Position numbers and translations under genes: made by a program
Shown here: positions 15,021 through 60,695 of the stretch, one piece after another
Layout: each line of letters opens with the position of its first letter
How positions within the stretch are numbered: position 1 is the stretch's first letter
Source of the DNA: Naegleria gruberi
Taxonomy: Eukaryota
Reading direction: 5' to 3' (one strand)
Length of the DNA stretch: 64,000 nucleotides
Assembly: GCA_000004985.1 (NCBI GenBank)
Contig: GG738854.1
The notes under the pieces: model-generated
The model's input: the letters and a program-made list of their open reading frames with translations, nothing else
What the model was told of the DNA's origin: nothing
The model's database searches: none

Positions 15021-17375
15021 TTATTGAGCCTTATAGATAAATACTTGATCATAACTTCCAACGAAGAGTTCACCTGTTTCATCTAAAATATCTACTGCTT
15101 GAATTGGAATATCATTAACTAAAATCTTATCATAACCTTCCAAATTGACCAAACGAACACTCTTGTGATAATCATTCAACAAAATATTTCCAGTAGCTCT
15201 ATCAAGTCTCATTGAATCTGTATGTGCTCCAGCATTGTGTGTCTTTAAGATTCTTCCTTTAGAATTAATGAGATAGATTGTTGAACTATCTCCAATGTAG
15301 AATTGATCTTCAACGCCAGAATACAAGACAGAGCAGAAGCAATAATAACGAGATTTTCCTTGGGAATCTTCTGAAATGACTTTTCCACTCTGACCATCCT
15401 TTGTACACATTTGGATAATTTGAGTTCCACAACCTTCCGTCAAGCACATAATTGAAGAATCTAATTGGTTGACTGCAATGTAACGTGGAATGAATTTAAA
15501 TCCTTTTTGTTCTCTGTTATGATAATCAACTTTCCACATGATATCTCCTTCATAACTGAATTTGTAAAATGCATCAGTAGCCACAACGATTGTATCCTCA
15601 TTGTAATCTATATCAATATCATAAATACTTTGACAATCTCCAACTGGAACCTTAATTGTCTTGATGTGTCTCTTTGTTGTCAAATCAAAGATGTGAACTT
15701 TCAATCTTTCAGCCACAAGCAAATGCTTTTTCTTTTGATGAACAACCATGGCAATCAATCCTGAAAATTTGAACTCACCACAATCTTCTTCATCACCCAA
15801 TATAGCTAATCTCTTCATATTTCTATTTGGAGTGACCTTTGGTGGTTGAGTAACTGGTAATGGTCTAATTCCCATTTGAGAAACCAAGTGAGCTTCACCA
15901 GATTTGTAAATTACAATCTTATTGTGGAATGAGACGTATAATTCACCCAATTGATCAGAAACTTCACAACAACTTGTGCCACCTTCTTCAGCAAAACTCT
16001 TTGAATAACCTTCCATATTAACAAACTTGATGCATTTGTGATAATCACTCAAAATGAGACAACCAGTGTAATGGTCAACTCTCAATGAATCAGGAGTAGC
16101 TTCCAATTGATGAGTTTTCAAAATTTTACCAGTTGAGTCAATCAAGTAAATTGTTGAACTATCTCCAATATAAAATTGATCTCCATAACCAGAATAACAA
16201 ATAGAATGGAAGCAATAATAACGAGATTTTCCTTGAGAATCTTCTGAAATGACCTTTCCACCTTTTCCATCCCTTGTCATGATTTGCAATACTTGAGTTC
16301 CACTTCCTTCAGTTGCACACAACACAGACGAATCAGCTTGGTTGACTGCAATATAACGTGGCACAAATTTCATTCCCTTTTCTTCCATATTTTGTGAATT
16401 GAGTTTCATTATCAAATCTCCTTCAAAATTAAGCTTGAAAAGCGAATAATCTGCAATGACATAAAAAGTGTCATCATTGTAATCAATGTCAATATCAGTT
16501 GGATAACTGCCACTTCCCCATAAATGGTTACAATTCAAAGTTTTCAAATTTCTCTTGGTGTTCAAATCGAAAATGTGAATATATTTCCAATCAGCAACGA
16601 AAAGCCAATTTCTCTTTTGATGGACAACCATTGCATAGACATTTTGAAATTTGAATTCGCCACAATCTTCTTCTTCGCCCAAAGTTGCAATTTTTTGATA
16701 GGTTAAATTACGTGGAGTTGGTTTTTGTGGAATACTTGTTGGTAAATGTTGTGGAATTTGAGTTTGTGGTTGACCAAATGGTTGTTGTTGAGGTGGAGGA
16801 ACACCAGTTTGAGGTGGAAATTGTCCATAAGGAATTTGAGTTTGTGGTTGTCCATATGGTTGTGGTTGACCTGGAATGCCAGTTTGAGGTGAATATTGTG
16901 GTTGACCATAAGGTTGATTTACGTATTGTGGAGGATATTGTTGAGGAGGAACATTTGGTTGACCATAATATCCTTGTTGAGGTGGATATTGTTGATTAGT
17001 TTGTGGTTGACCAAATGGTTGAATTTGTGGTGAATATTGACCAACAACATTTGGTTGACCAGTTGGAGGAGGAATTTGAGAAGTACCAATTGGTTGTTGA
17101 CCTACTTGTGGTGAATATTGTGGTTGTCCATAATATCCTTGTGGAGGATATTGTGGTTGTCCATATGGTTGTGCATAACCTCCATAATAACCTCCTTGTG
17201 GTTGTTGTTGTTGTGGAGGATATCCATAACCTTGTTGTGGTGGATATTGTGGTTGACCATATGGTTGTTGTTGTGGATGGGGTGGGTATTGGTAATAGCC
17301 TTGTTGTTGTTGTTGTGGAGGTTGGTGTTGACCAGTAGTTGGTTGAGAGTTTGTTGGTGGTGTGTTAATTGACAT
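15021..17375 (-). CDS. Prion-like P/Q/Y-rich N-terminus plus two tandem NHL-like propeller domains (784 aa)
   Basis: Single ORF. The first ~230 aa are degenerate GQPQYPPQ-type repeats. Two ~270-aa units follow, each starting LG(E/D)EEDCGEFKF and ending ...VSEDSQGKSRYYCF...DQFYIGDSSTIYLI. Both units are homologous to the B-box paralog propellers. Confidence 0.55.
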   Translation of the reverse strand: MSINTPPTNSQPTTGQHQPPQQQQQGYYQYPPHPQQQPYGQPQYPPQQGYGYPPQQQQPQGGYYGGYAQPYGQPQYPPQGYYGQPQYSPQVGQQPIGTSQIPPPTGQPNVVGQYSPQIQPFGQPQTNQQYPPQQGYYGQPNVPPQQYPPQYVNQPYGQPQYSPQTGIPGQPQPYGQPQTQIPYGQFPPQTGVPPPQQQPFGQPQTQIPQHLPTSIPQKPTPRNLTYQKIATLGEEEDCGEFKFQNVYAMVVHQKRNWLFVADWKYIHIFDLNTKRNLKTLNCNHLWGSGSYPTDIDIDYNDDTFYVIADYSLFKLNFEGDLIMKLNSQNMEEKGMKFVPRYIAVNQADSSVLCATEGSGTQVLQIMTRDGKGGKVISEDSQGKSRYYCFHSICYSGYGDQFYIGDSSTIYLIDSTGKILKTHQLEATPDSLRVDHYTGCLILSDYHKCIKFVNMEGYSKSFAEEGGTSCCEVSDQLGELYVSFHNKIVIYKSGEAHLVSQMGIRPLPVTQPPKVTPNRNMKRLAILGDEEDCGEFKFSGLIAMVVHQKKKHLLVAERLKVHIFDLTTKRHIKTIKVPVGDCQSIYDIDIDYNEDTIVVATDAFYKFSYEGDIMWKVDYHNREQKGFKFIPRYIAVNQLDSSIMCLTEGCGTQIIQMCTKDGQSGKVISEDSQGKSRYYCFCSVLYSGVEDQFYIGDSSTIYLINSKGRILKTHNAGAHTDSMRLDRATGNILLNDYHKSVRLVNLEGYDKILVNDIPIQAVDILDETGELFVGSYDQVFIYKAQ
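15024..16700 (-). repeat. Internal tandem duplication of a ~270-aa propeller-like domain (copy 1 ~16700-15900, copy 2 ~15830-15024)
   Basis: The two halves align residue by residue. Examples are LGEEEDCGEFKFQNVYAMVVHQKRNWLFVADWKYIHIFDLNTKRNLKT against LGDEEDCGEFKFSGLIAMVVHQKKKHLLVAERLKVHIFDLTTKRHIKT, and KFVPRYIAVNQADSSVLCATEGSGTQVLQI against KFIPRYIAVNQLDSSIMCLTEGCGTQIIQM. Confidence 0.55.
16701..17372 (-). repeat. Low-complexity coding repeat (P/Q/Y/G-rich, degenerate octapeptide GQPQYPPQ units)
   Basis: Direct inspection of the translation. The antisense frame gives artefactual V/E-rich ORFs (16685-17338 +). Confidence 0.6.
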
Positions 17376-24967: not shown

Positions 24968-25662
24968 TTTTTTTTCTTCGCTACTAGTAGGAAACGATAA
25001 CAACTAAACTTGGTGTGTGTGAAATTGAGAGATATGTTCCAGTACAGAAAAAGTGTTGGGTTGGAATGGGAAACCATGTCCTGGAAAAGAAGTATCAACA
25101 CTATGCGTTGAAACACGGTAAGATATTGCAAACTCAATGAAGAAGGGCTTTTTTATCTAACGTCAGCAAAAAGTCATAACTCAATTGTTAGTAATCTTAC
25201 TAACATTTTTTTCGTAGCCGTAGTACTTGGTAGTATATATTACAATGCTTCATGAATGCCTTTTGCAATAATATTTCCATCAAGAAATTAGTTAAGGATA
25301 TGTAGAGATAGTAATGGACTGTACACTTTTGTAATTAGAAAGGAAGATTCATCAACAATATTTTACCAACAGCCAGTAAGCACAATACAACGTGGCGAAG
25401 TCAAAGGACGTGATGAAAAAAACAAAAGAAAAAGAAGGCGGGAAAAAAATCCTTGCAACCTCACTTCTTACCATCATCACGCTACATCAAAGCTGGTAAA
25501 GTATCGGAGTGAATGAACAATATGCAGGCTTCTGTTTAGTTTCTTGCCAGCCATGTTCTTCATCCTTTGCTTCCTGTTGAAAGTGGTATTATCAACAAGT
25601 TGTCAAATTCACCTTTCAACCTTTGAATTTTGTTTTTTCCGTTCAGATTTCAATTAAAAAAA
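24968..25662. promoter_or_regulatory. Divergent intergenic region between the NHL receptor-like gene and NHL-BTB copy A; 25048-25662 is repeated at 26886-27496
   Basis: The two flanking genes are head-to-head. The upstream ~250 bp is also conserved (~80% identity, inverted) at 53843-54130, upstream of copy C. Confidence 0.35.
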
Positions 25663-26835
25663 TGTCTTCACTTGCTACCAGTGCACAACTGAATTCTCCT
25701 TTTGGTGTTTTTGTTTCATCAAATAATGAAGTTTATATTGCTGATTATGGTAATCAAAGAATTAGAAAAATATTAAAAAATGGAAATATTGTAACAATTG
25801 CTGGAAATGGAACTGCTGGATTCAGAGGTGATAATGGTCCTGCAACAAATGCACAACTGTATAATCCTTATAGCGTTTTTGTTTCATCAAATAATGAAGT
25901 TTATATTGCTGATTTTAGTAATCATAGAATTAGAAAAATATTAGAAAATGGAAAAATTGTAACAATTGCTGGAAATGGAACTGGTGGATTCAGTGGTGAT
26001 AATGGTCCTGCAACAAATGCACAACTGAATAATCCTTATAGCGTTTTTGTTTCATCAAATAATGAAGTTTATATTGTTGATTATAATAATCATAGAATTA
26101 GAAAAATATTAAAAAATGGAAATATTGTAACAATTGCTGGAAATGGAACTGGTGGATTCAGTGGTGATAATGGTCCTGCAACAAATGCACAACTGAATAA
26201 TCCTATGGGTGTTTTTGTTTCATCAAATAATGAAGTTTATATTGCTGATTATTATAATCATAGAATTAGAAAAATATTAGAAAATGGAAATATTGTAACA
26301 ATTGCTGGAAATGGAACTGCTGGATTCAGTGGTGATTCACCTTTTGATATTAGAACGTATCCTCATATTGGAAATAAGTTATTAACTGGAAATGGTAACT
26401 TACATTCTAAAATAGAATTTCATAATTTGAAAAAACATTCAAGAGATGAATTATTTGGATTGCCAATTTATGGATTCATTCCCCTCATTGAAAAAACTTC
26501 ACCAAAATTTAGTAACATTTTGAAGAATGAAAAGATACTTTGTTTGATGAGTTCATCACAACAAGAAATTATTCAAAAATTAATTGACTCTTTGATATAC
26601 GATAAGAATAAGGTAAAGTTTAACAAAGAAGAAATGTTGGATGTTTTATTCATTTTGGGTTTATTTAAGAATGGTGAATTTATTGATTTGAAAAGATCAT
26701 TAACAAGTGAATTTGTGAACTCACTCACATTAGAAAATCTTACTTTCAAATGGGAAACAATTGAAAATTTACTCAAAATTTGCAAGGAGGAATTCAATGT
26801 TCAAAATTACATTCTTGATCATTTGAATAACTATG
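25048..26835 (+). repeat. Tandem duplication unit 1 (promoter plus NHL-BTB gene)
   Basis: 25048-25662 is ~99% identical to 26886-27496, differing only by indels, e.g. ggaatggg against ggatggg. The coding parts are also near-identical. Confidence 0.7.
25663..26835 (+). CDS. NHL-repeat plus BTB/POZ family protein, copy A; the 3' end is lost in the assembly gap
   Basis: Start MSSLATSAQLN. Four near-identical 57-aa NHL units (NAQLNNPYSVFVSSNNEVYIADYNNHRIRKILENGNIVTIAGNGTGGFSGDNGPAT) are followed by a linker (KKHSRDELFGLPIYG...). The ORF runs directly into the N run. By comparison with copies B and C the missing part should hold the BTB domain. Confidence 0.6.
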
Positions 26836-26885: not shown

Positions 26886-29538
26886 AAAGTGTTGGGTTGG
26901 ATGGGAAACCATGTCCTGGAAAAGAAGTATCAACACTATGCGTTGAAACACGGTAAGATATTGCAAACTCAATGAAGAAGGGCTTTTTTATCTAACGTCA
27001 GCAAAAAGTCATAACTCAATTGTTAGTAATCTTACTAACATTTTTTTCGTAGCCGTAGTACTTGGTAGTATATATTACAATGCTTCATGAATGCCTTTTG
27101 CAATAATATTTCCATCAAGAAATTAGTTAAGGATATGTAGAGATAGTAATGGACTGTACACTTTTGTAATTAGAAAGGAAGATTCATCAACAATATTTTA
27201 CCAACAGCCAGTAAGCACAATACAACGTGGCGAAGTCAAAGGACGTGATGAAAAAAACAAAAGAAAAAGAAGGCGGGAAAAAAATCCTTGCAACCTCACT
27301 TCTTACCATCATCACGCTACATCAAAGCTGGTAAAGTATCGGAGTGAATGAACAATATGCAGGCTTCTGTTTAGTTTCTTGCCAGCCATGTTCTTCATCC
27401 TTTGCTTCCTGTTGAAAGTGGTATTATCAACAAGTTGTCAAATTCACCTTTCAACCTTTGAATTTTGTTTTTTCCGTTCAGATTTCAATTAAAAAAATGT
27501 CTTCACTTGCTACCAGTGCACAACTGAATTCTCCTTTTGGTGTTTTTGTTTCATCAAATAATGAAGTTTATATTGCTGATCAAAGTAATAAAGAATTAGA
27601 AAAATATTAGAAAATGGAAATATTGTAACAATTGCTGGAAATGGAACTGCTGGATTCAGAGGTGATAATGGTCCTGCAACAAATGCACAACTGTATAATC
27701 CTTATAGCGTTTTTGTTTCATCAAATAATGAAGTTTATATTGTTGATTATAATAATCATAGAATTAGAAAAATATTAAAAAATGGAAATATTGTAACAAT
27801 TGCTGGAAATGGAACTGGTGGATTCAGTGGTGATAATGGTCCTGCAACAAATGCACAACTGAATAATCCTATGGGTGTTTTTGTTTCATCAAATAATGAA
27901 GTTTATATTGCTGATTATTATAATCATAGAATTAGAAAAATATTAGAAAATGGAAAAATTGTAACAATTGCTGGAAATGGAACTGGTGGATTCAGTGGTG
28001 ATTCACCTTGGTCCTGCAACAAATGCTCAACTGAATAATCCTTATAGCGTTTTTGTTTCATCAAATAATGAAGTTTATATTGTTGATTATAATAATCATA
28101 GAATTAGAAAAATATTAGAAAATGGAAATATTGTAACAATTGCTGGAAATGGAACTGGTGGATTCAGTGGTGATAATGGTCCTGCAACAAATGCACAACT
28201 GAATAATCCTATGGGTGTTTTTGTTTCATCAAATAATGAAGTTTATATTGCTGATTATTATAATCATAGAATTAGAAAAATATTAGAAAATGGAAATATT
28301 GTAACAATTGCTGGAAATGGAACTGCTGGATTCAGTGGTGATTCACCTTTTGATATTAGAACGTATCCTCATATTGGAAATAAGTTATTAACTGGAAATG
28401 GTAACTTACATTCTAAAATAGAATTTCATAATTGAAAAAACATTCAAGAGATGAATTATTTGGATTGCCAATTTATGGATTCATTCCCCTCATTGAAAAA
28501 ACTTCACCAAAATTTAGTAACATTTTGAAGAATGAAAAGATACTTTGTTTGATGAGTTCATCACAACAAGAAATTATTCAAAAATTAATTGACTCTTTGA
28601 TATACGATAAGAATAAGGTAAAGTTTAACAAAGAAGAAATGTTGGATGTTTTATTCATTTTGGGTTTATTTAAGAATGGTGAATTTATTGATTTGAAAAG
28701 ATCATTAACAAGTGAATTTGTGAACTCACTCACATTAGAAAATCTTACTTTCAAATGGGAAACAATTGAAAATTTACTCAAAATTTGCAAGGAGGAATTC
28801 AATGTTCAAAATTACATTCTTGATCATTTGAATAACTATTGTATTGAATATGCTGTTGTTCAAATGAGGACTAAAGAAGGAAACACTGTATTACCGACTC
28901 TTCCAATAATTATGAGAAATGGTGTTGCCATTTTTTCAAAAATGATCATTACTAAACCAACTGCAATTAATATTGAGGAAACAATTGAGATTAAACCACA
29001 AACAATTGAATCATTATATAATGACAAGAAAACAAGTGATGTGAAAATCAAAATGGGACAAAACAAATACTTATATTGTCACAAAACTGTATTGAGTTCA
29101 TCAAGTACATTGTTTAATGCATTATTTGACAGTGGATCTTGTTTCAGTGATTTAAGTGATGATGGAATATTCACACCTGACGAATCAGAAGATTTAGAAT
29201 TATTGGAAATTGTGATCAAACATTGTTATGGAATTTCAATTGACAAAATTGATGCTGTTAAAATTATTGGATTACTTGATATGGCAATGAAACATGAAAT
29301 TCAATATCTGGTCGATTATTGCAAGAATAACTTTAATCTATCCATTGATAATTACTTTACAATACTTGAAGCATGTGAAAAATATCTTGATTTACAACCA
29401 TTTGAGCAATTTATGAGAGATATTATCAAATTTAGCATTACCAACAGAAAACAACTTTTCAAGGATCGCAATAGAATTTCCAACTTACCTGAAAAAGTTT
29501 GGCAAGAAATGGTCTTCAAGTTTTCACAGGACTTTTGA
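26886..29538 (+). repeat. Tandem duplication unit 2 (promoter plus NHL-BTB gene copy B)
   Basis: As for unit 1. Confidence 0.7.
27497..29538 (+). pseudogene. NHL-repeat plus BTB/POZ protein, copy B; at least three frame disruptions (apparent pseudogene or assembly/indel errors), with the BTB-containing part 28432-29538 intact
   Basis: A 1-nt deletion plus divergence at ~27583-27612 leads to a TAG. An internal junction at ~28000-28012 fuses the end-of-array sequence (ggtgattcacctt) to a mid-repeat sequence (ggtcctgcaacaaatgc). At ~28427 the T run is one T shorter (cataattgaaaaaac) than copy A (cataatttgaaaaaac), shifting the frame in front of the BTB ORF. The BTB motif itself is clear: DVKIKMGQNKYLYCHKTVLSSSSTLFNALFDSG...LELLEIVIKHCYG...IIGLLDMAMKHEIQYLVDYCKNNF. 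Confidence 0.5.
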
Positions 29539-30237
29539 GATTATTTTGGATAGATAATTACAATCTATATTAAAACATTCTTTTATTTGCAAATGACAAC
29601 ACATGAACATAATCGAAACACAATAACCAAATACAGAAAATACTCAACAAGTAGCATATGTAGAGCAAAAAACAAATCTCAATTAAGCAGCAGCGAGAAG
29701 GTTAGAATACACCACCAATCAGACCAAGAAACCTCAGCCCCAAACGCACAGTCTTGGACTTTGCGCATACATGAAAGGCTTCAATTAAAATTCCTGGTCT
29801 GCTCGGTATTATTATTATACATGTTGCTAGCCTTGTCGACGAATGGAAAACCAACTACTCCTCCTCCATCTCGTGCTAATGTTGTTCTTGTTCTGGTTGT
29901 TATTAAATGTCTACTATCGGCTGGATATTGTTGATGATGATGAACATGATCATTATGATGGCCGTGGTCAGGATGTTGATCAGAATTAATACGAGTCGTG
30001 ATGGAGTGTAAAGTTAGGTTATTGTTGTTATTATTCTCAACATGGTTGCATGAAAGGAAAAGAAGGCGGTCGAAATCTTTATCTATTTGTTCAAAGTTTG
30101 GTGAATGAGCAGTGTTGTTGTTGGTCGCTGCCATGATGTTGTTAATATGATTACAGCTTAGCGTGGTTAAAAGCTAAAAGGAAAGTTTTGTTTTTTTTGT
30201 TTTTGAAATTTATTTTTAATTTTGTAAAACTTTCGTC

Positions 30238-50290: not shown

Positions 50291-50380
50291 GGTGCGATGG
50301 TCGAGTGGTCTAAGACGACACGTTAAGGTATTCTAATACCGTGTTCCGCAAGGGCGTGGGTTCAAATCCCACTCGCATCA
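50291..50380 (+). tRNA. tRNA-Leu(AAG): tRNA-Leu (anticodon AAG), class II, with a 10-nt intron (50329-50338) 3' of position 37
   Basis: Folded by hand. The acceptor stem ggtgcga pairs with tcgcatc (one G-U) and the discriminator is A. The D-arm is gtc/gac with an 11-nt loop gagtggtctaa. The anticodon stem acacg pairs with cgtgt, and the loop is ttAAGg plus c once tattctaata is removed. A long variable arm and a T-arm gtggg-ttcaaat-cccac complete the fold. No encoded CCA. Confidence 0.8.
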
Positions 50381-50655: not shown

Positions 50656-51384
50656 TTAAATAATGGCAGCTGTTGCTGTAATTTCAATTCTCCATTCAGG
50701 TCTAGCCAATTGAGCTTGAACAGTAGCTCTTGGTGGAGTATTACCTTTTGGAACCCAAGCATCCCATACCTTATTCATTCCAGCAAAATCCTCAACCATA
50801 TTAGCCAAGAAAATTTGAACCATCAATAATTTTGTCTTGTCAGTTCCTGCCTCCTTAAGACGAGCATCAAGCATTGCCAAAACTTCCTCAGTTTGTCCTT
50901 CAATATCCTTAGTTCCATCATCTGGTACTTGTCCTGAAATGTACAAAACTCCCTGATAAGCAGCAGTCTCACTAAAACGTTCTCCAACATGGAATCTCAC
51001 CAAACCATTATTCTCAATTCCTGAACGAGTTTGAGCTTGCAATTGTACCTTAATTTTAGCATCAACTTGTGAATCAATTTCCATCAATGTAACAGCAGGT
51101 AATTGATTTCCAAAAACTCTTCTCAAAACTGAAAAACAACTTGTAAAATCCTCATCCACATTTCTAAATTGGAGGGTGAGTCTTTCAACATCTCGGAGTG
51201 ATGCGGAGGCAACAATTTGCTTGATGGATTGTTCCGCATTGGTTAAACATTGTTCAAATTGTTCGATCAGATTTTGTTCTTGTTGTTGTGGAGTGCTGTT
51301 TGTGATTGGAACGAAAATTGCTCCATTTTCTTCTATGATGGCTTTTTGCATTTTTTTTAACTTTGACTTTTCAAAATATTTCAT
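50656..51384 (-). CDS. RidA/YjgF/YER057c (reactive enamine/imine deaminase) domain protein with a ~120-aa N-terminal extension; intronless
   Basis: The C-terminal 125 aa read AAYQGVLYISGQVP...EGQTEEVLAMLDARLKEAGTDKTKLLMVQIFLANMVEDFAGMNKVWDAWVPKGNTPPRATVQAQLARPEWRIEITATAAI, which matches the RidA family pattern. The N-terminal half is Q/E-rich with no assignable domain. Confidence 0.6.
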   Translation of the reverse strand: MKYFEKSKLKKMQKAIIEENGAIFVPITNSTPQQQEQNLIEQFEQCLTNAEQSIKQIVASASLRDVERLTLQFRNVDEDFTSCFSVLRRVFGNQLPAVTLMEIDSQVDAKIKVQLQAQTRSGIENNGLVRFHVGERFSETAAYQGVLYISGQVPDDGTKDIEGQTEEVLAMLDARLKEAGTDKTKLLMVQIFLANMVEDFAGMNKVWDAWVPKGNTPPRATVQAQLARPEWRIEITATAAII

Positions 51385-51635
51385 AATTTACAAAAACTGT
51401 TACATGGAATAGGTACACGGTGATAATTATTTGAATTGAATAAACTCTCAATATTTATTCGATTTAATTCTTTCAAAGTTCCAAAAATTTAGAATTGGTT
51501 GTTCTCGATATTTTGATGAACATTTAATCATGCGTCTTGTTAAATTCCTCGATTAATTTCCAATCGAATATCTTACATTGCTGAAATACAATATTGACAG
51601 TGATTCCACTATTCACATAACATATCCAAATAATC

Positions 51636-53842
51636 TCAAAAGTCCTGAGAAAGCCTTAAGAGCATTTCTTGACAAACTTTTTCAGGTAATTTGTAAATTC
51701 TATTGGTGTGATCCCTGAAAAGTTGTTTTCTGTTGGTAATGCTAAACTTGACAATCTCTCTCAAAAATTGCTCAAATGATTGTAAATCAAGATATTTTTC
51801 ACATGCTTCAAGTATTGTAAAGTAATTATCAATGGATAGATTAAAGTTATTCTTGCAATAATCGACCAGATATTGAATTTCATGTTTCATTGCCATATCA
51901 AGTAATCCAATAATTTTAACATCATCAATTTTGTCAGTTGAAATTCCATAACAATATTTGATCACAATTTCCAATAATTCCAAATCTTCTGATTCGTCAG
52001 GTGTGAATATTCCATCATCACTCAAATCACTGAAACAAGATCCACTGTCAAATAATGCATTAAACAATGTGCTAAATGAAGTCAATATAGTTTTGTGACA
52101 ATATAAGTATTTGTCTTGTCCCATTTTGATTTTCACATCACTTGTTTTCTTGTCATTATATAATGATTCAATTATTTGTGGCTCAGTTTCAATTGTTTCC
52201 TCAATATTAATTGCAGTTGGTTGAGTAATGATCATTTTTGAAAAAATGGCAGTAGCATTTCTCATAATTATTGGAAGAGTTGGTAATAAAGTGTTTCCTT
52301 TTTTGGTCCTCATTTGAACAACAGCATATTCAATACAATAGTTATTCAAATGATCAAGAATGTAATTTTGAACATTGAATTCCTCATTGCAAATTTTGAG
52401 TAAATTTTCAATTGTTTCCCATTTGAAAGTAAGATTTTCTAATGTGAGTGAGTTCACAAATTCACTTGTCAATGATCTTTTCAAATCAATAAATTCACCA
52501 TTCTTAAATAAACCCAAAATGAATAAAACATCCAAGATTTCTTCTTTGCTAAACTTTACCTTATTCTTATCATACATCAAAGAATCAATTAATTTTTGAA
52601 TAATTTCTTGTGATGAACTCATCAAACAAAGTAACTTTTCATTCTTCAAAATGTTACTAAATTTTGGTGAAGTTTTTTCAATGAGGGGAATGAATCCATA
52701 AATTGGCAATCCAAATAATTCATCTCTTGAATGTTTTTTCAAATTATGAAATTCTATTTTAGAATGTAAGTTACCATTTCCAGTTAATAACTTATTTCCA
52801 ATATGAGGATACGTTCTAATATCAAAAGGTGAATCACCACTGAATCCAGCAGTTCCATTTCCAGCAATTGTTATAATATTTCCATTTTCTAATATTTTTC
52901 TAATTCTATTATTATAATAATCAGCAATATAAACTTCATTATTTGATGAAACAAAAACACTAAAAGGATGATTCAGTCGTGCATTTGTTGCAAGACCATT
53001 ATCACCATTGAATCCATGAATTCCATTTCCAGCAATTGTTATAATATTTCCATTTTCTAATATTTTTCTAATTCTATTATTAAAATAATCAGCAATATAA
53101 ACTTCATTATTTGATGAAACAAAAACACTATAAGGAGATTCAGTCGTGCATTTGTTGCAAGACCATTATCACCATTGAATCCATGAGTTCCATTTCCAGC
53201 AATTGTTATAATATTTCCATTTTCTAATATTTTTCTAATTCTATTATTAAAATAATCAGCAATATAAACTTCATTATTTGATGAAACAAAAACACTATAG
53301 GATGAATTCAGTTGTGCATTTGTTGCAAGACCATTATCACCACTGAATCCATGAATTCCATTTCCAGCAATTGTTACAATATTTCCATTTTCTAATATTT
53401 TTCTAATTCTATGATTACCTTGATCAGCAATATAAACTTCATTATTTGATGAAACAAAAACACTGCAAGGAGTATACAGTTGTGCATTTGTTGCAAGACC
53501 ATTATCACCACTGAATCCATGAATTCCATTTCCAGCAATTGTTATAATATTTCCATTTTCTAATATTTTTCTAATTCTATTATTACCTTGATCAGCAATA
53601 TAAACTTCATTATTTGATGAAACAAAAACACTGTAAGGACGATTCAGTTGTGCATTTGTTGCAAGACCATTATCACCACTGGAACCCTTAGTTCCATTTC
53701 CAGCAATTGTTACAATAGTTCCATTTTCCAATATTTTTCTAATTCTATTATTAAAACAATCAGCAATATAAACTTCATTATTTGATGAAACAAAAACATT
53801 ATTAGGTCGATTCAGTTGTGCACTGGTAGCAAGCGAAGACAT
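51636..53842 (-). CDS. NHL-repeat plus BTB/POZ family protein, copy C (inverted relative to copies A and B); one frameshift near 53127
   Basis: Start MSSLATSAQLNRPNNV, then six NHL units. The frame is lost at aatc-tcctta, where the other repeats have aatcatcctta. The reading then continues into an intact linker and BTB domain (DVKIKMGQDKYLYCHKTILTSFSTLFNALFDSG) ending at 51636. Confidence 0.5.
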
Positions 53843-54130
53843 TTTTTTAATTGTAATCCGAACGGAAACAACAAAATTCAAAGGATGAAAGGTGAATTTG
53901 TTGATACTTCATTCAACAGGAAGCAAAGGATGAGCAATAGACCCTAAGAAGAAAGCAACCAACATATGATGAGGAACATGGCAAGAAACTGAAAATATTG
54001 CCTGAATATTGGTCATTCACTCCGATACTTTACCTGACTTCAAAGCAACAGAGGAAATGCTATGATGAAGCGTATTACTCAAGATGAAGAATACACTGTA
54101 AATCCTACTTTGCTGAGAGTGGTGAAGCAT
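53843..54130. promoter_or_regulatory. Upstream region of copy C, homologous (inverted, ~80%) to the upstream region of copies A and B
   Basis: The reverse complement begins ggtaaagtatcggagtgaatga..., as at 25496-25517, and shares conserved blocks up to the ATG. Confidence 0.3.
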
Positions 54131-54508
54131 CGTTCTTGAATCATTTTTTTAAGGAGTGTTTTAAAAATATATTTATCTAAAAGGAGCCACGTGACCTTAA
54201 CTTTAAAGTTTGATAAGCTGCTAACTAGCAGACAACATGACGATAAGTCTGGTACTGGCGGAAGAGTGAGGGAACAACATTTAGTGCTAATCATAATTTT
54301 CATGAGCATCTCAATGGCACTAGTACAGAAAAATCTGAATTTTCAAAAGCTAACTTCCTATATGCTGCAGTTTAGCAGTGGCTTTCAATCCTCGCTAGAT
54401 ATATATTGCCATTCCTGATGTGACTTTCAATTAATAAATTTCAATGTGCTCATTGAGTCACTTTGAATTAAGGTGTTGTTTTATTTTTAAAAAAAAATTT
54501 TAAAAAAA

Positions 54509-55102
54509 ATGCACAATTTGTTTAAACCTAACGAACAGTTTTCTGAGGAAGAGTTTAAGAGAAAGGCGTTATCGGGTCAATTTAAGGTATTGTCTGATTT
54601 CAATTCCGCAACCATTCTAAAAGAAAATCAAGAATTGGGATTACTAACTACTGAACAACAAGCTCCTCCTACCATAGAATTTCTTAAACTCGAGAAAAGT
54701 TGGTTACAGGCTAAAGAGTTGGCAACGAAACTCCTGAATGAAAATCAAGATCTTAAAACGTTTATTGAAACTCAAGAGAATGACTTTTATGAGATATCCG
54801 AAAAGAGAGAAAACGAAGTTGAAATTCTTCAAAACAAATATTCCGAAGCCTGTGAATTGAATCAAAAATACCAGCTTACACTTGAAGGTATCGTTAAAGA
54901 TGTTAAAGCCATCCAAAAGGAAAGCAATGAGCTCAAAATCCGTATTACTGCTGTTGAAAAGGAGAATCAAGACTTCAAGAAGGAAAATCAAGACCTCAAA
55001 ACCCGTATTACTGATGTTGAGAAGGAGAACGAAGGCTTTAAAATCCGTATTACTAATGTTGAACAAGAATTGCAACTTATGCAAATTCTTAATGCCTTAT
55101 AA
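54509..55102 (+). CDS. Coiled-coil protein with tandem ~21-aa repeats (ENQDLKTRITDVEKEN-like)
   Basis: Heptad-rich translation. The DNA carries 2.5 near-identical ~63-bp units at ~54890-55075. The ORF at 55112-55393 may be a downstream exon. Confidence 0.35.
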   Translation: MHNLFKPNEQFSEEEFKRKALSGQFKVLSDFNSATILKENQELGLLTTEQQAPPTIEFLKLEKSWLQAKELATKLLNENQDLKTFIETQENDFYEISEKRENEVEILQNKYSEACELNQKYQLTLEGIVKDVKAIQKESNELKIRITAVEKENQDFKKENQDLKTRITDVEKENEGFKIRITNVEQELQLMQILNAL

Positions 55103-55833
55103 TGCTCCTTTATGTTGTTTACTGAAAAGTATTTACAAGAAAAAACTGGAAGTTGGTGGGAAAAAATGGATAATTACATCAACCTTACTAATCCACAAGT
55201 TCTTACTGTTGGGTTATCTTTCTCTGATATCAAAACACTTTGGCAATTCTATACCAACAATTACCCTCAAAGGAATAAGATTGCACACACTGCAACAAAA
55301 ACAATATCTTTATTTAATGATATATTAAACAAGCTCATTGAAGAATTCCTAAACTGGGCAGAGCAACATGATCCTTTTATTCACACTAAGTGAGTTCACA
55401 GACTACTACTCTCAACACTTCAAGATGATTCAAATGGTCAGACTGCAACTGCACATGAAATAAATATGAATTGATATTTTAATAGCAGATATATGAATGG
55501 TAAAATTACCAGCTCTATTGAGTGAGTTGGTCTGTATCTATGGTTAAGGGATTGAGCGATGATCAATGATCTTTGATACAGAAAGAGTCTTAACAATGAT
55601 TGAGAAAAAATTTCCAAACCCTCTGATTCGTCAAATATGAATAATTCACCAATCAAAATATTGAATTCCTCCATTCAAATTTTTAGTAACTTATCTATTG
55701 CTTCCCATGTGAGTTGTTCTAAATTTGCTCAATTTGAATGATTGTAAGAATGATTGAAATGCGCTCATTCATCTTCTGAATAGTATTAAAAGATAAAAAC
55801 TCTATGATGTTGGTTCGTACCCGTAATCAATTA

Positions 55834-57429
55834 CTAATAAAGAGTTGTTTCTTTGAAATATCTGAATCGTCCAATGAACATGACTCCACATAATAGTAAT
55901 TTAGAAAATGAATTGAAATGTGAACACAGACTTAATTTGCTATTCGAAAGTCCAATAGAAAAACCAGTGTTTGATAACGCACTTGTCACTTCGAATGTAA
56001 TTTCAAATATTAAAGTTGAATAATTGGAAAGTTGAGAAATTTCAGAAATGGAAATTAAAAGTGTAAAGAAAACTAAAGTTAATGATTGAGTTGAAATAGA
56101 ATAGAATATAGTAGAGATTAATTTTGAGAAGAAACTGGATGAAATGTTATAGAAACTTGCATGGTAAGGCTCATTAGATGATATTTCAAGTGATTTTGCA
56201 TCTTGATTTCTGCCAGTTTCGCCCATGGTTGAGTAATTGGAGAAATTCAACATTTCATAAACTCTACACCCCAAATTATAAACCATTTTCGGTTTGATAT
56301 ACATTAGAAATATGTAAAACACCAAAGTTATATTCGAAAGTGATGATAAATCCATTAAGGAAATGCCTGCATTTCTAGCAGAAATTGGAAGAAACAAACT
56401 AATTACAACATTTTCAATTCCTCCTCCATTTTCACTATTTTTCATAGCCAATAATTGAACAGATTCATTCCAGTAGGTAAAAACGAAACCTATCAGAATC
56501 AATAATACATTAGAAACTCCATAAATCCAAGTCTGATATTCCTGATGAGCCATTAATGGACTCATTTGATGACAATTCTCCAAAATATACTTGAAAAGTT
56601 TCTTTCGTTTTGTTGAAATTCTCCAGAAAATCCAAAATATAAATTTCAAAGTTATTGGAAGAAAAACATGTCCCATTAAGATTAATAAGGAAATTGTGGA
56701 AAAGATGATTGGATTGGTAAAGTTTTCAAGGCCTTCATCGAGGAGAGTTGTTCCACAGTTGAGGAATGCAGAGGTGGAAATGAAGAGTCCTAACCAGAAG
56801 GGATTGTTTCCTTTCAGATAAAAGTTATTGGAAAGGTGGAATGAAATACCTAAAATTAAGAAACCCAACAATATAGAAAGAATAAAGAAAGAGTAAATTA
56901 TGATATTTGTCCAAATGATGCTGTAGAATTCAATTTCACTCTCCTGATAATAATCATATTCTTGTTGTAAAGGTTTCTTACAAAGTGACGAAACCCTTCT
57001 TCCAAATCTATTGAACAGTCCTTCGGAAGCAACTCCTGAGAGTTCATCCTCCAATATTTCATCGTCCATACTTTCTTCTTGAAGTACTTTCCTAATCATT
57101 TCATTTCTTGTATTGTAAACTTTACAAATTGTAATCGGAATCATTGTTACGAAAATGGATCCAGTCAACATGGCCAATAACAAACAAATCTGTGAAGATA
57201 CTCGTATATTTTCCAATGAATGATTCAAAAATCCTGTCAGACATATATTCGTTATAGAAATAAACAATGAATCCAGAAATGAAAATTTAGTTTTCACATT
57301 CGAAAGTTCTAAACAATAAAATACAATTCCATATAAAAATCCGCTCACAATCAAGATCAATACATGTATGTATATCGAATATCTACCTAACATACTCTGT
57401 ATCGACATTTTCTTTGTGTTTAATCTCAA
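55834..57429 (-). CDS. Trk/Ktr/HKT-family cation (K+/Na+) transporter; intronless
   Basis: Four pore-loop-like segments carry the conserved glycine filter positions: FLDSLFISITNICLTGF, FLNCGTTLLDEG, a third segment, and SALSNTGFSIGLS. Hydrophobic M1-P-M2 units alternate, matching the superfamily pattern (sAvTvTGL / NaGF / sAfttvGlStG). Confidence 0.6.
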   Translation of the reverse strand: MRLNTKKMSIQSMLGRYSIYIHVLILIVSGFLYGIVFYCLELSNVKTKFSFLDSLFISITNICLTGFLNHSLENIRVSSQICLLLAMLTGSIFVTMIPITICKVYNTRNEMIRKVLQEESMDDEILEDELSGVASEGLFNRFGRRVSSLCKKPLQQEYDYYQESEIEFYSIIWTNIIIYSFFILSILLGFLILGISFHLSNNFYLKGNNPFWLGLFISTSAFLNCGTTLLDEGLENFTNPIIFSTISLLILMGHVFLPITLKFIFWIFWRISTKRKKLFKYILENCHQMSPLMAHQEYQTWIYGVSNVLLILIGFVFTYWNESVQLLAMKNSENGGGIENVVISLFLPISARNAGISLMDLSSLSNITLVFYIFLMYIKPKMVYNLGCRVYEMLNFSNYSTMGETGRNQDAKSLEISSNEPYHASFYNISSSFFSKLISTIFYSISTQSLTLVFFTLLISISEISQLSNYSTLIFEITFEVTSALSNTGFSIGLSNSKLSLCSHFNSFSKLLLCGVMFIGRFRYFKETTLY

Positions 57430-57764
57430 GTTTTCTTCTCAGATATTTAAAAGATTTTCTTTCAATAGATTTTTTCCAACCTTTCCTTATTTATAACCTA
57501 ATACTCAACAAGTGAAGATGAAAAAGTATGTCTTATATCAGACATCTTATTATTTTCCTTTCAAAATACCTTTGCATTCGAAGAAAAATTATATGTTTAT
57601 TCAATGAGTTCCTGAGATATTAAAAGCACTTGAAATTTTGGTCATCATCTGTTTATTACAAAGTGATTTATTTCAATTGCTTGTTTATTGTCTCTATGGA
57701 ATTCCTTGATTGCAGTCCAATTGCGATTTCAAGTTTAGTTTGTGAATTAGTTTTGTAATATAAT

Positions 57765-58160
57765 TTATTGGAAAGATGGATTGGTGGCAAAATAATGTTT
57801 GAGAATTGTCTCTTGTTTGGATTTAATTTGATAGGAAACGAAAAAACATCTTGGATGTGAAGGAAGAGTTTCGTCTTTACAAGGTTTAGTTTCTTTTGGT
57901 TTCTCCTCTCTTCTTTTCTTAATTTTCTTAATTTTATGAACGTGTTTAGGATGTTTCCTATGATGATGATGCTTTTTATGAGTAGATTTATGGTACTGAT
58001 GAATTATTTCTTCTTGGCCATTCGAATGATTGCATTCGAAACTTTCCAAAGATGGATGTTTCGTTTTCCTCGAGTGTTTCCTTCTCTCTGAGCAATACAC
58101 TGTTTGTGCAAACTGTATAATCAACACTATTGCTATCAACAATACAATAAATCGTTTCAT
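57765..58160 (-). CDS. Secreted His/Lys-rich small protein (signal peptide MKRFIVLLIAIVLIIQFAQTVYC)
   Basis: The ORF has a strong N-terminal signal-peptide-like segment and HKKHHHHRKHPKHVHKIKKIKKRREEKPK. The start is placed at the ATG at 58160; the ORF tool extends to 58214. Confidence 0.4.
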   Translation of the reverse strand: MKRFIVLLIAIVLIIQFAQTVYCSERRKHSRKTKHPSLESFECNHSNGQEEIIHQYHKSTHKKHHHHRKHPKHVHKIKKIKKRREEKPKETKPCKDETLPSHPRCFFVSYQIKSKQETILKHYFATNPSFQ

Positions 58161-58366
58161 TTTCTTTTTGAAATTACAAAACATTAATTTTTCATCTTTC
58201 ATTCCACTTTTCAAACATTTCCATTTTTAGCTTTTTCTCAATACTACTCCAACATGTTCTCATAGTATTTTTTTATCAAGATTAGTTTAGTTTCCCATAA
58301 AATCTTCACTTCTTTCAACATCAAATTCCCAACAATTTTTTCACTTTCTAAAATCTCTAATTTTAT

Positions 58367-58726
58367 TTAAATAACACCCTTATACTTCATATCAGAAGCA
58401 CAAATGTGAGTAATCAACCATTGCTTAATAAATTGCATCTCAGCATCTCCAACACTAGTCAAGGCCAAAGCATCCTGAACAAATTTATCATGAGTTTCCT
58501 TATGAGAGGCAGATTCAGACCAACCAGCCTTAGCAAACAAATCTTCTTCAGTCTTGAAGTGGAAAACAACGTAATCTAATAATTCCTTCAATGTTGTGCC
58601 GCAACTTCTCTTGGCATCTAAAGCGTTGATTAAAGTGAAGAGTTTCTTGTGTTGTTCGTTTAATTCAGCATTGCCAATATCGAGAGTGGTTGACCATTCG
58701 TATGGGGTTGGGATTGGATAAGACAT
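58367..58726 (-). CDS. Single-domain hemerythrin (bacteriohemerythrin-like), 119 aa, intronless
   Basis: All seven di-iron ligand positions are present in canonical spacing: H25 (EQHKKLF), H54/E58 (HFKTEEDLF), H73/H77 (HKETHDKF), and H106/D111 (ITHICASD). W11 and the helix-breaking pattern are also conserved. Confidence 0.65.
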   Translation of the reverse strand: MSYPIPTPYEWSTTLDIGNAELNEQHKKLFTLINALDAKRSCGTTLKELLDYVVFHFKTEEDLFAKAGWSESASHKETHDKFVQDALALTSVGDAEMQFIKQWLITHICASDMKYKGVI

Positions 58727-59128
58727 TTTTGTTGTTAGTTGTATTGATTGTTTTTTTTGTTTGGTTGATTGGCAGGTGACAGTTGTTGGGGTTTTAAAGG
58801 TTTTTTGTGATCAGAAACTTTAGAAGGTGTGGTTGCAATTTGTCTTTTTTTGGAAATTTTTAGGTTTTTGTCGGATTGTAATGATGTAATTTTACAGAGT
58901 TGACTTGTCGTTGTAGGGAATGTGGCGTGTTAAATGTGACATTATTCGAAACAACGCCAGTTTTTCAAATATGGCGTTCAAAAATTATTTCTCCAAATGT
59001 ACATCCAATCAAAACTCAACAATTACAATTATTCGAATGAAAAATTGTAGTCAAAGATTATAATACAACATTTTAAAGTTTGTTTTTTCCACATGTTGTT
59101 ACAACTGTTTATTCTTCCACAACTAAAT

Positions 59129-60178
59129 TTATTCTTTGAGTTGGAAAAGAGCCCAATCTACTCTTGGTTGAATAGTCTTTCCATCTTCCAACACATTAGA
59201 AATAATGTGTCCAGCAAACATTTCAGTCTTATACTCTGTACCATTATCTTTGACTAAAATTGGAACATTGACGTATCCTCTCGGAATATCTTGTGAATCA
59301 ATCTTTGGCCATGCACCAGGTTTACAATCTCCTTTCCATGTTCCCTCATCTGAAAATACACAGAAAGTTGTAATCCATCCACCCAAATAACGAGGACCTG
59401 ATCCACTACCTGAAAAGTGAGCTACTCTATTCCACCACTCCTTATCTGGATTTCCCTTGATTGATTCTACAAAATGATCCAAAACTGGGAATAATAAAGT
59501 AGACCATTTTTCCATATATCCTTCCTTTGTGTCAAATTCCAATAATCTGTTCGCTCTTTCTCTAATCTTGATCCAGTCCTCAACCTCTCCCAATAATGTT
59601 ACACTTGGCAAGTTACAAAACAAAAAAAACTTGTAATCAAAGTAATTCTTCATAGCAGCCATAAGAACCACTGCTCCAACCATCCTATCATTCTCAGTGG
59701 TGGTAGTAAAGTCTGGCATGACCCATTCTCTTACACTTGGATCCTTAATATTCTGTACAATTTGATTGGTCATATCCAATGAGAGGGAAACATAATCAGC
59801 CGAGAATAAATTACCAGAACCGTAGACTGTTAATTGCTTCTTTCCATCAAAGTCTACAAATTTGTCTCTCAATTCTTCTGACTTTCCATTCACATATTTC
59901 GAAAATTGAGTACAAATAGTAAGCCATACATCATCAGGTCTAATGACCAAATTATTATGATAGGAATAGGCTTGAACAACACTTTTTACAAAAGAATTTG
60001 ATCCCAACATGATCATGGATTCATCTATTTTACCAAAACTTGATATAATCGGTTGCTTTACATAAACTTCCTTTTCTTCAGTCTTTGAAAGATTTCTCTC
60101 CTTTCCAGGAAGAATTTGTTCAGGTTCAAAGGCTTGTTTTGGTTTTAAAGAGAGAGAAAATACAAACTGCAACCTCAA
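59129..60178 (-). CDS. Hypothetical conserved-looking protein, intronless; the first ATG is at 60016 and the ORF tool start at 60178 is a TTG
   Basis: 349-aa ORF with a non-biased, globular-looking composition ([19 protein letters not shown]..., [19 protein letters not shown]). I have a weak, unverified recollection that it resembles fungal or bacterial DUF4419-type proteins. Confidence 0.3.
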
Positions 60179-60695
60179 TATATAATGAATTCACAACCAT
60201 CGCCTCAGTGACTTTGAATGTAATTGGCATTTTTTTTCTTGAAGTTATATTTTGTAAGTTTTGGAGTTTATTAATAGGAAAAAGGAGTATATATTGATGA
60301 ATGAACCCTTGATGCAAAACGTGATTTGTTCAATCAAGTATTGTATATTTACTATGTATTTCATATTATTCGAATGATTTTTCTGATTGACCATTTATTG
60401 ATTTTCGTGAAAGATTGGTAACTGTGTTGTTTATTATATATTATTAGGAAAATGACCTTTAATTCATATGCTTGGGTTGGGTTTAATTCTTCATGTTGTG
60501 AATGTTATTGTAAGCCTTCGAAGTGCTTCTAACAAATATAGCAATAAAGTTTACTAATGCTAAAATAGCTGTGGCACTAAAACACCACCATTTGCAATCC
60601 GCTAATGTCAATGCAATGAATAGAGGGAAAATAGAAAGCATTGATATCCCAACAATCTTACTATGAAATGAAGATTTCTTTTGTTTAGACTTGGC

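Follow-up and report, generated by a model that had tools for sequence, protein, structure and literature searches.

The 64-kb window analysed here is a stretch of Naegleria DNA (contig GG738854.1, 64,000 nucleotides), and its positions 50656–60178, hereafter the region, hold a run of genes that a first-pass annotation had proposed as a horizontally acquired or accessory island. Matches to Pfam profiles, by which we named the open reading frames (ORFs), bear out the four genes at the centre of that proposal, which encode a Rid/L-PSP protein, a TrkH-domain protein, a single-domain hemerythrin and a DUF4419 protein (Table 1). They also bear out, together with self-BLAST of the window, the remark that small and coiled-coil ORFs and an inverted copy of an NHL-BTB gene are interspersed among the four. 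The island did not survive closer analysis. We conclude, with a probability of roughly 0.8, that the region is ordinary, gene-dense nuclear DNA of Naegleria, with functionally unrelated genes and one old transfer, that of a Rid2-type domain.

Composition, introns and gene content

Along the window, GC content lies between 0.29 and 0.37, with about 0.33 overall; the published value for N. gruberi is 33% (PMC8296547). In base composition and codon usage, the four genes match their host. Their GC content at third codon positions (GC3) is 0.24 for Rid, 0.30 for Trk, 0.37 for hemerythrin and 0.30 for DUF4419, and lies between 0.10 and 0.37 in the other ORFs. We also computed a z-score for how well the synonymous codon usage of one ORF fits that of the remaining ORFs pooled together; it amounts to +2.3 (Rid), −2.1 (Trk), +0.5 (hemerythrin) and +0.5 (DUF4419), and spans −4.0 to +4.4 in 30 other ORFs. 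By this comparison of GC3 and codon usage, which the first-pass annotation had itself suggested as a check, the four genes cannot be told from the eukaryotic genes around them.

The absence of introns is the default state of genes in the Naegleria genome. Introns of the window are rare and tiny (44–55 nt, with GTAAGT-type donors), N. gruberi has 1.7 exons per gene (PMC8296547) and 47% of N. lovaniensis genes carry one or more introns (PMC6125883). By our own count in the window, a single ORF makes up 17 of the 25 gene units that lie outside the region, F-box, homeobox, RGS and WD40 genes among others, and 5–6 of the 7 inside (Fisher p = 0.64–1.0). The single-ORF share within the region is thus within what chance would produce, and the idea that its intronless run forms an unusual cluster falls away. 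The description of all four genes as free of introns stands for Rid, Trk and hemerythrin, which are single ORFs, but not for DUF4419, which probably has a tiny 5′ intron (or a frameshift). The Trk, hemerythrin and DUF4419 homologues of N. lovaniensis are likewise intronless.

Table 1 Features of the region and the adjoining tRNA gene, with positions in the 64-kb window
Feature	Position	Strand	Basis and details
Rid-family ORF, 242 codons	50656–51384	−	PF01042 Ribonuc_L-PSP
NHL-repeat/BTB gene	51636–53881	−	Pfam; BTB ORF 51636–52742 and NHL ORF 53057–53881
Coiled-coil ORF, 197 aa	54509–55102	+	KENQDLK-type repeats; sub-threshold coiled-coil Pfam matches only
TrkH-domain ORF, 531 codons	55834–57429	−	PF02386; first ATG at 57408, 524 aa
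Small His/Lys-rich ORF, 149 aa	57765–58214	−	Hydrophobic N-terminal segment
Single-domain hemerythrin, 119 aa	58367–58726	−	PF01814
DUF4419 gene	59129–60230	−	PF14388; main ORF 59129–60178 (349 codons), probable short first exon from ATG 60230
Nuclear tRNA gene, 90 nt	50291–50380	+	ARAGORN; Rfam RF00005, 47.9 bits

A Rid2-type domain with bacterial relatives

The Rid ORF matches PF01042 over residues 135–240 only (E = 5e-28, 98 bits, cut-off 27.3). A Rid2-type YjgF/L-PSP domain occupies approximately residues 128–241, and residues 1–127 form an N-terminal extension. The best PDB matches of the domain are the Rid2 proteins PSPTO_0102 (3e-29) and PA5083 (2e-27); RidA, UK114 and YabJ follow at 1e-4 to 1e-8, with eukaryotic RidA/UK114 at about 1e-5, and the RidA-type model TIGR00004 scores 63 bits, below its cut-off of 106. 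Both catalytic residues are kept: the arginine lies in the motif PPRATV, which aligns with PARATV of PSPTO_0102, and the glutamate in RIEIT, which aligns with LVELS/IEI-type positions in the same alignment. Arg105 of S. enterica RidA and the glutamate form the conserved catalytic pair that defines the RidA/Rid1–3 group (PMC4433059). Other hallmarks of the family are imine deaminase activity and a homotrimer whose active sites lie between subunits. Previous work classed PSPTO_0102 and PA5083 as Rid2 and found Rid1–7 solely in prokaryotes (PMC5619798), or described Rid1–7 as “largely confined to bacteria” (PMC4433059).

Our comparison of this protein covered PDB chains, prokaryotic genomes and metagenome loci. 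When one genome per prokaryotic species was scanned, the domain proved 60–66% identical to proteins of Burkholderiales (Limnohabitans, Comamonadaceae, Ramlibacter and Methylovorus). A neighbour-joining tree with 80 bacterial homologues placed it inside a beta/gamma-proteobacterial cluster in 196 of 200 bootstraps, and its best sister group was recovered in only 84 of the 200. Its Rid2 class, its identity to Burkholderiales proteins and this grouping point to a bacterial origin. The metagenome scan was also read for Naegleria-like Rid homologues and none was found: all 80 loci are of bacterial composition, on contigs with a GC content of 0.43–0.72, and match mainly the C-terminal domain.

The extension (51004–51384, 127 codons) has the properties of coding sequence, with a stop-free run that has a probability of about 5e-5 and a coding-type order of GC content over the three codon positions (GC1 > GC2 > GC3). 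None of 160 bacterial or metagenomic relatives covers it in full; coverage reaches at most residues 83–127, on one contig of bacterial composition. The extension may be a degenerate second Rid domain, as suggested by a weak collinear match to PF01042 (E = 0.014, sub-threshold) in which the position of the catalytic arginine is replaced (LPAVT). A Rid2 profile built from bacterial homologues gave 5 bits, a score surpassed by 5 of 500 shuffles. BLASTP of the N-terminal half of the protein against its C-terminal half gave no match. A single-sequence AlphaFold2 prediction for the ORF was discarded, as its predicted local distance difference test (pLDDT) score was 34 and it was all-helix even over the Rid domain.

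From these sequence comparisons, the Rid gene is credible as an old and fully ameliorated bacterial acquisition. A Rid2 domain would most likely have been captured from a beta-proteobacterium, possibly prey, after which the gene would have ameliorated fully to host codon usage and gained its 127-residue N-terminal extension. By analogy with bacterial Rid2 proteins, the product would hydrolyse reactive imino acids that arise from flavin-dependent amino-acid oxidases/dehydrogenases. We hold only tentatively to the more specific proposal that the gene encodes a eukaryotic Rid2 imine deaminase derived from a freshwater Burkholderiales-like beta-proteobacterium and fused to a degenerate second Rid-like domain, with the hemerythrin and the divergent Trk as lineage-specific accessory genes beside it. 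A Rid2 deaminase acting in a eukaryote would run contrary to the published statement that Rid1–7 occur in prokaryotes only. It is the only item of the region that is new, and it is modestly so. If confirmed across Naegleria, it would widen the range of Rid2 to a eukaryote and provide a further example of transfer from a bacterium to an amoeba.

Trk, hemerythrin and DUF4419

The Trk ORF (coding from 57408 to 55834) matches PF02386 (TrkH) with 95.8 bits (E = 2.9e-27, cut-off 27). Of the NCBIfam models, the eukaryotic TIGR00934 (“2a38euk”) scores 106.8 bits and the bacterial TIGR00933 51.3, both under their trusted cut-offs, and at E ≤ 1 the PDB matches are plant HKTs only, with no TrkH or KtrB among them. 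A word-indexed search, which had returned four weak matches because its candidate list was filled by low-complexity words, was replaced by an exhaustive HMMER search against 1.8 billion representatives. The nearest relative found there is an N. lovaniensis protein of 884 aa (40% identity, E = 2e-74), the cluster of a Percolomonas cosmopolitus protein is among the top ten and the strong matches are mostly 600–1200 aa long, in the eukaryotic size range. None of the 1.8 billion representatives exceeds 50% identity, and an orthologue from N. gruberi NEG-M did not surface. At 524 aa, the protein is approximately 360 residues shorter than its N. lovaniensis homologue. Taken together, the profile scores, the plant HKT structures and the Naegleria and Percolomonas relatives classify this gene as a divergent eukaryote-type Trk/HKT and not a bacterial one, contrary to the earlier view of the Trk/Ktr/HKT family as typical of bacteria.

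The protein contains four membrane-pore-membrane units with filter glycines at G59, G219, G348 and G482, and the motifs around them (CLTG59, NCG219, NAG348 and NTG482) align with the P-loops of AtHKT1;1 (chain 8y6j_A). Na+-selective HKT1 proteins have a serine at the filter position of loop A. By the rule of Maser 2002, cited in PMC3797977, a glycine in all four P-loops marks the K+-permeable members of the family, so K+ permeability or selectivity is predicted for the Naegleria protein, which would take up K+ across the plasma membrane. Trypanosoma brucei, another discobid, also has a Trk/HKT (PMC3797977).

The hemerythrin scores 37 bits with PF01814 (cut-off 25.3) and has all seven diiron ligands, five histidines, one glutamate and one aspartate (H26, H56, E60, H75, H79, H107 and D112), aligned with those of myohemerythrin. 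Its best PDB match is an animal myohemerythrin, over residues 3–118, and the animal-type model TIGR00058 gives 121.8 bits against 93.1 for the bacteriohemerythrin model NF033749, whose cut-off of 84 is also passed. The label of bacteriohemerythrin was therefore imprecise, given the higher score of the animal-type model and the end-to-end alignment with myohemerythrin. The protein is 78% identical to an annotated N. gruberi protein, 59% identical to one of N. lovaniensis and at most 95% identical to any database sequence searched. The contigs that carry relatives down to approximately 50% identity also hold genes of eukaryotic type, such as those for a mitochondrial carrier and for zf-PARP, NHL and EF-hand proteins.

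These identities place the protein within the Naegleria Nfa1/hemerythrin family. In N. fowleri, both Nfa1 and its paralogue belong to the hemerythrins, and N. gruberi has five copies (PMC2556348, PMC4919030, PMC11964265, PMC7326272). Naegleria hemerythrins group with metazoan ones in published trees (PMC2556348, PMC4919030), and O2/NO binding and strong regulation by iron have been demonstrated for them (PMC7326272, PMC11964265). As shown for these homologues, the protein encoded here would be cytosolic, iron-regulated and O2/NO-binding. It is of applied interest because N. fowleri Nfa1 and Nf hemerythrin have been discussed as virulence-associated, iron-regulated, O2/NO-binding proteins.

Two further observations touch on this gene. 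Assembly GCA_050043615.1 consists of more than 287,000 contigs, one of which (JBNHEI010287342.1, 1148 bp) codes for a hemerythrin with 95% protein and 88.7% DNA identity to ours; the likeness is limited to the coding sequence, and this hemerythrin probably comes from a closely related Naegleria in that sample. On Ga0213833_1001264 / ERZ650344 NODE_2053 (18–31 kb, metagenomic), a 53%-identical hemerythrin stands beside mitochondrial-carrier, zf-PARP and DUF3825 genes, and the source would be a eukaryote or, possibly, a giant virus.

The DUF4419 protein matches PF14388 over the entire profile (positions 1–303 of 303; E = 1e-106, 357 bits) and is 92% identical to an N. gruberi protein. Among the homologues listed, N. 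gruberi, N. lovaniensis and N. fowleri are each represented by more than one paralogue (several per species), and the heterolobosean Acrasis kona and then dictyostelids, Tribonema and a springtail follow; 82 invariant columns are common to the protein and to Naegleria, Acrasis and Dictyostelium members. This distribution fits a eukaryotic multi-copy family inherited within Heterolobosea. We know of no biochemical activity for DUF4419 proteins. The start conserved among homologues (MPITF.V, here MPITFKVT) is found at ATG 60230; from there, the main ORF lies 52 nt further downstream and in a different frame. In this stretch (60133–60230, −), the arrangement implies either an unusually small intron of 31 or 46 nt (of a length equal to 1 modulo 3) or a frameshift. 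The alignment with homologues thus suggests that a short first exon is probably joined to the main ORF by such an intron, or else separated from it by a frameshift. In N. gruberi, the DUF4419 gene model, of 295 aa, shows a truncation at this 5′ point too.

Genomic setting and origin of the region

Pfam matches throughout the window describe a eukaryotic chromosome segment, with genes for an actin-related protein and for START, ankyrin, kinase, 2OG-oxygenase, NHL, BTB, RabGAP-TBC, homeobox, Cullin, F-box, RGS and WD40 proteins. These matches include no domain of an integrase, a transposase or a mobile element, and self-BLAST of the window gave no repeats that we counted as an island boundary, although no search was aimed at such repeats. 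As a neighbour outside the region, the tRNA gene is separated by 275 bp from the Rid gene, on the side of the latter's 3′ end. Its variable arm is long, its anticodon loop is interrupted by an intron of 15 nt, and ARAGORN did not name its anticodon. The coiled-coil ORF and the small ORF at 57765–58214 have no significant Pfam match. The latter, between the Trk and hemerythrin genes, encodes a protein whose hydrophobic N-terminus resembles a signal or an anchor and whose tail is rich in His and Lys (HHHHRKHPKHVHKIKKIKK); that it neighbours the genes of an iron protein and a cation transporter may be a coincidence. Elsewhere in the window, the 784-codon ORF 15021–17375, which has a weak Mala_s_1-like match, contains an internal repeat of approximately 380 bp (15132–15512 vs. 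16005–16385, 75% identity).

The NHL-BTB sequence at 53665–51623 (−) is an inverted, 94%-identical copy of 27506–29552 (+), 22 kb away, and the plus-strand copy itself includes a 1.3-kb tandem duplication of 97.5% identity (25050–26336 vs. 26886–28174), both found by self-BLAST; together they indicate that this neighbourhood undergoes recent segmental duplication. The NHL repeats have a period of approximately 168 bp. In the minus-strand copy, an open frame from 53165 to 51636 links NHL repeats to the BTB domain; the upstream NHL ORF 53057–53881 is read in a different frame, owing to either a frameshift or an intron. Frame disruptions separate the NHL and BTB parts in both copies, which may be pseudogenes, intron-bearing genes or the product of assembly errors.

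Relatives of the genes do not travel together. The N. lovaniensis homologues lie on contigs PYSW02000015/84, 22, 43 and 5, with the hemerythrin, the Trk and two DUF4419 genes on different contigs, each amid typical genes of a eukaryote, such as those for kinases, DNA-PKcs, guanylate cyclases, DNA ligase, ubiquitin, SRP19 and filamin. This dispersal speaks against a conserved block, and TBLASTN with all proteins of the region found no other shared neighbours. We did not count as synteny an NHL gene near a 74%-identical hemerythrin on a Naegleria-like metagenome contig, since the NHL family is too large.

If the block were a horizontally acquired island, its four genes would derive from bacteria or fungi and would have arrived either as a group or one after another at a single hotspot. 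The bacterial type of the Rid catalytic domain, the tRNA gene nearby and the common strand of the four genes are what one would expect of it, but we consider it very improbable. The run shows no deviation in composition or codon usage and includes no mobility domains; its homologues are scattered in N. lovaniensis, and it is broken by a paralogue of a host NHL-BTB family and by lineage-specific ORFs. The Trk is of eukaryote type, and the nearest relatives of the hemerythrin and DUF4419 proteins are heterolobosean or otherwise eukaryotic. The claim of a bacterial- or fungal-type origin is thus retained for Rid only, as the nearest named relatives of the other three genes are from Naegleria, Heterolobosea and other eukaryotes; with their relatives and codon usage both pointing to the host, the island proposal fails for three of its four genes. 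Deviant composition, conserved linkage and mobility genes, by which an island might be recognised, are missing, and nesting within a donor clade is seen for the Rid domain only. Still further from plausible, to the point of being negligible, is the placing of prokaryotic genes among amoeba genes by bacterial contamination or a chimeric assembly. Nothing but the bacterial affinity of the Rid domain speaks for it, whereas the Rid gene has a GC content of 0.37 overall, as against 0.43–0.72 for the contigs of its bacterial relatives, and the GC3 given above, and its z-score marks a better than average fit to host codon usage. It is fused in frame to an AT-rich 127-codon extension, and composition does not change from the eukaryotic tRNA gene on one side of it to the BTB gene on the other. 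We therefore discarded contamination on composition and on contiguity with the Cullin, F-box, RGS and WD40 genes, the intron-bearing tRNA gene and the NHL-BTB paralogue, all of them alike in composition; canonical genes of eukaryotes border the four genes on either side.

Less remote, though we still judge it unlikely, is that the region is accessory and fast-evolving, with species- or strain-specific extra copies (hemerythrin, DUF4419, NHL-BTB and the divergent Trk) that arose by local duplication and are not foreign. The recent inverted and tandem duplications would suit such a history, as would the family-less small ORFs in between and a pangenome study in which four of five hemerythrin homologues lie outside the core genome (PMC9928731). 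It is opposed by the long intact ORFs, which in an AT-rich genome argue for constraint, by the conserved housekeeping-type genes (Cullin, WD40) on the flanks, and by the fact that gene families of Naegleria normally vary in copy number, which does not make a stretch an island. To variation of this kind between species, in parts of the region, we give a modest chance; it would concern family copy number and not foreign DNA.

Several points count against our reading of the region as an ordinary nuclear segment with a single transfer, and the first of them also favour the accessory alternative. The best NEG-M match of the hemerythrin is 78% identical, as compared to 92% for DUF4419, and the Trk is without any relative above 50%; the hemerythrin and Trk copies may be specific to this lineage or may lack annotation in NEG-M, and to that extent an accessory view keeps some ground. 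In addition, the distribution of hemerythrin and DUF4419 across eukaryotes is patchy, so that very old transfers are possible. Furthermore, the bacterial Rid sample was chosen by likeness to the query, and the tree is a neighbour-joining one only. We nonetheless favour the ordinary segment, in which the four genes would have separate origins with no transfer en bloc, and would be neighbours only as a result of a compact genome that is mostly poor in introns.

The result carries a caution for Naegleria and similar intron-poor protists, in which the absence of introns and family names that sound bacterial are no evidence of gene transfer; Trk, hemerythrin and DUF4419 belong to the normal repertoire of the genus.

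When compared to prokaryotic-style islands and to clusters of horizontally transferred genes in eukaryotes, the region is similar in its same-strand genes, its adjoining tRNA gene and the bacterial origin proposed for one gene, and differs in having no composition shift, mobility genes, shared origin, shared pathway or conserved linkage. The Rid protein shares with bacterial Rid2 proteins (PSPTO_0102, PA5083, DadY and S. enterica YoaB) a YjgF/L-PSP domain of approximately 110 residues with the catalytic arginine and glutamate; unlike theirs, the Naegleria gene is nuclear, follows host codon usage and encodes the 127-residue N-terminal extension. The Trk resembles the plant HKT2 class, fungal TRK and T. 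brucei TbHKT1 in its four repeats within a single chain and its glycine in all P-loops, but it is highly divergent from eukaryotic Trk/HKT proteins, much shorter and far under the trusted cut-off of TIGR00934. DUF4419 is a full-length match to its Pfam family, with its 5′ structure as the sole notable difference. Finally, the hemerythrin agrees with Nfa1, “Nf hemerythrin” and the N. gruberi hemerythrin in its single domain, its length of 119 aa, its complete diiron set and its 59–78% identity, and its terminal motifs, IPTPY... and ...MKYKGVI, correspond to the IPSPF... and ...MKYKGVL that published primers for Nf encode.

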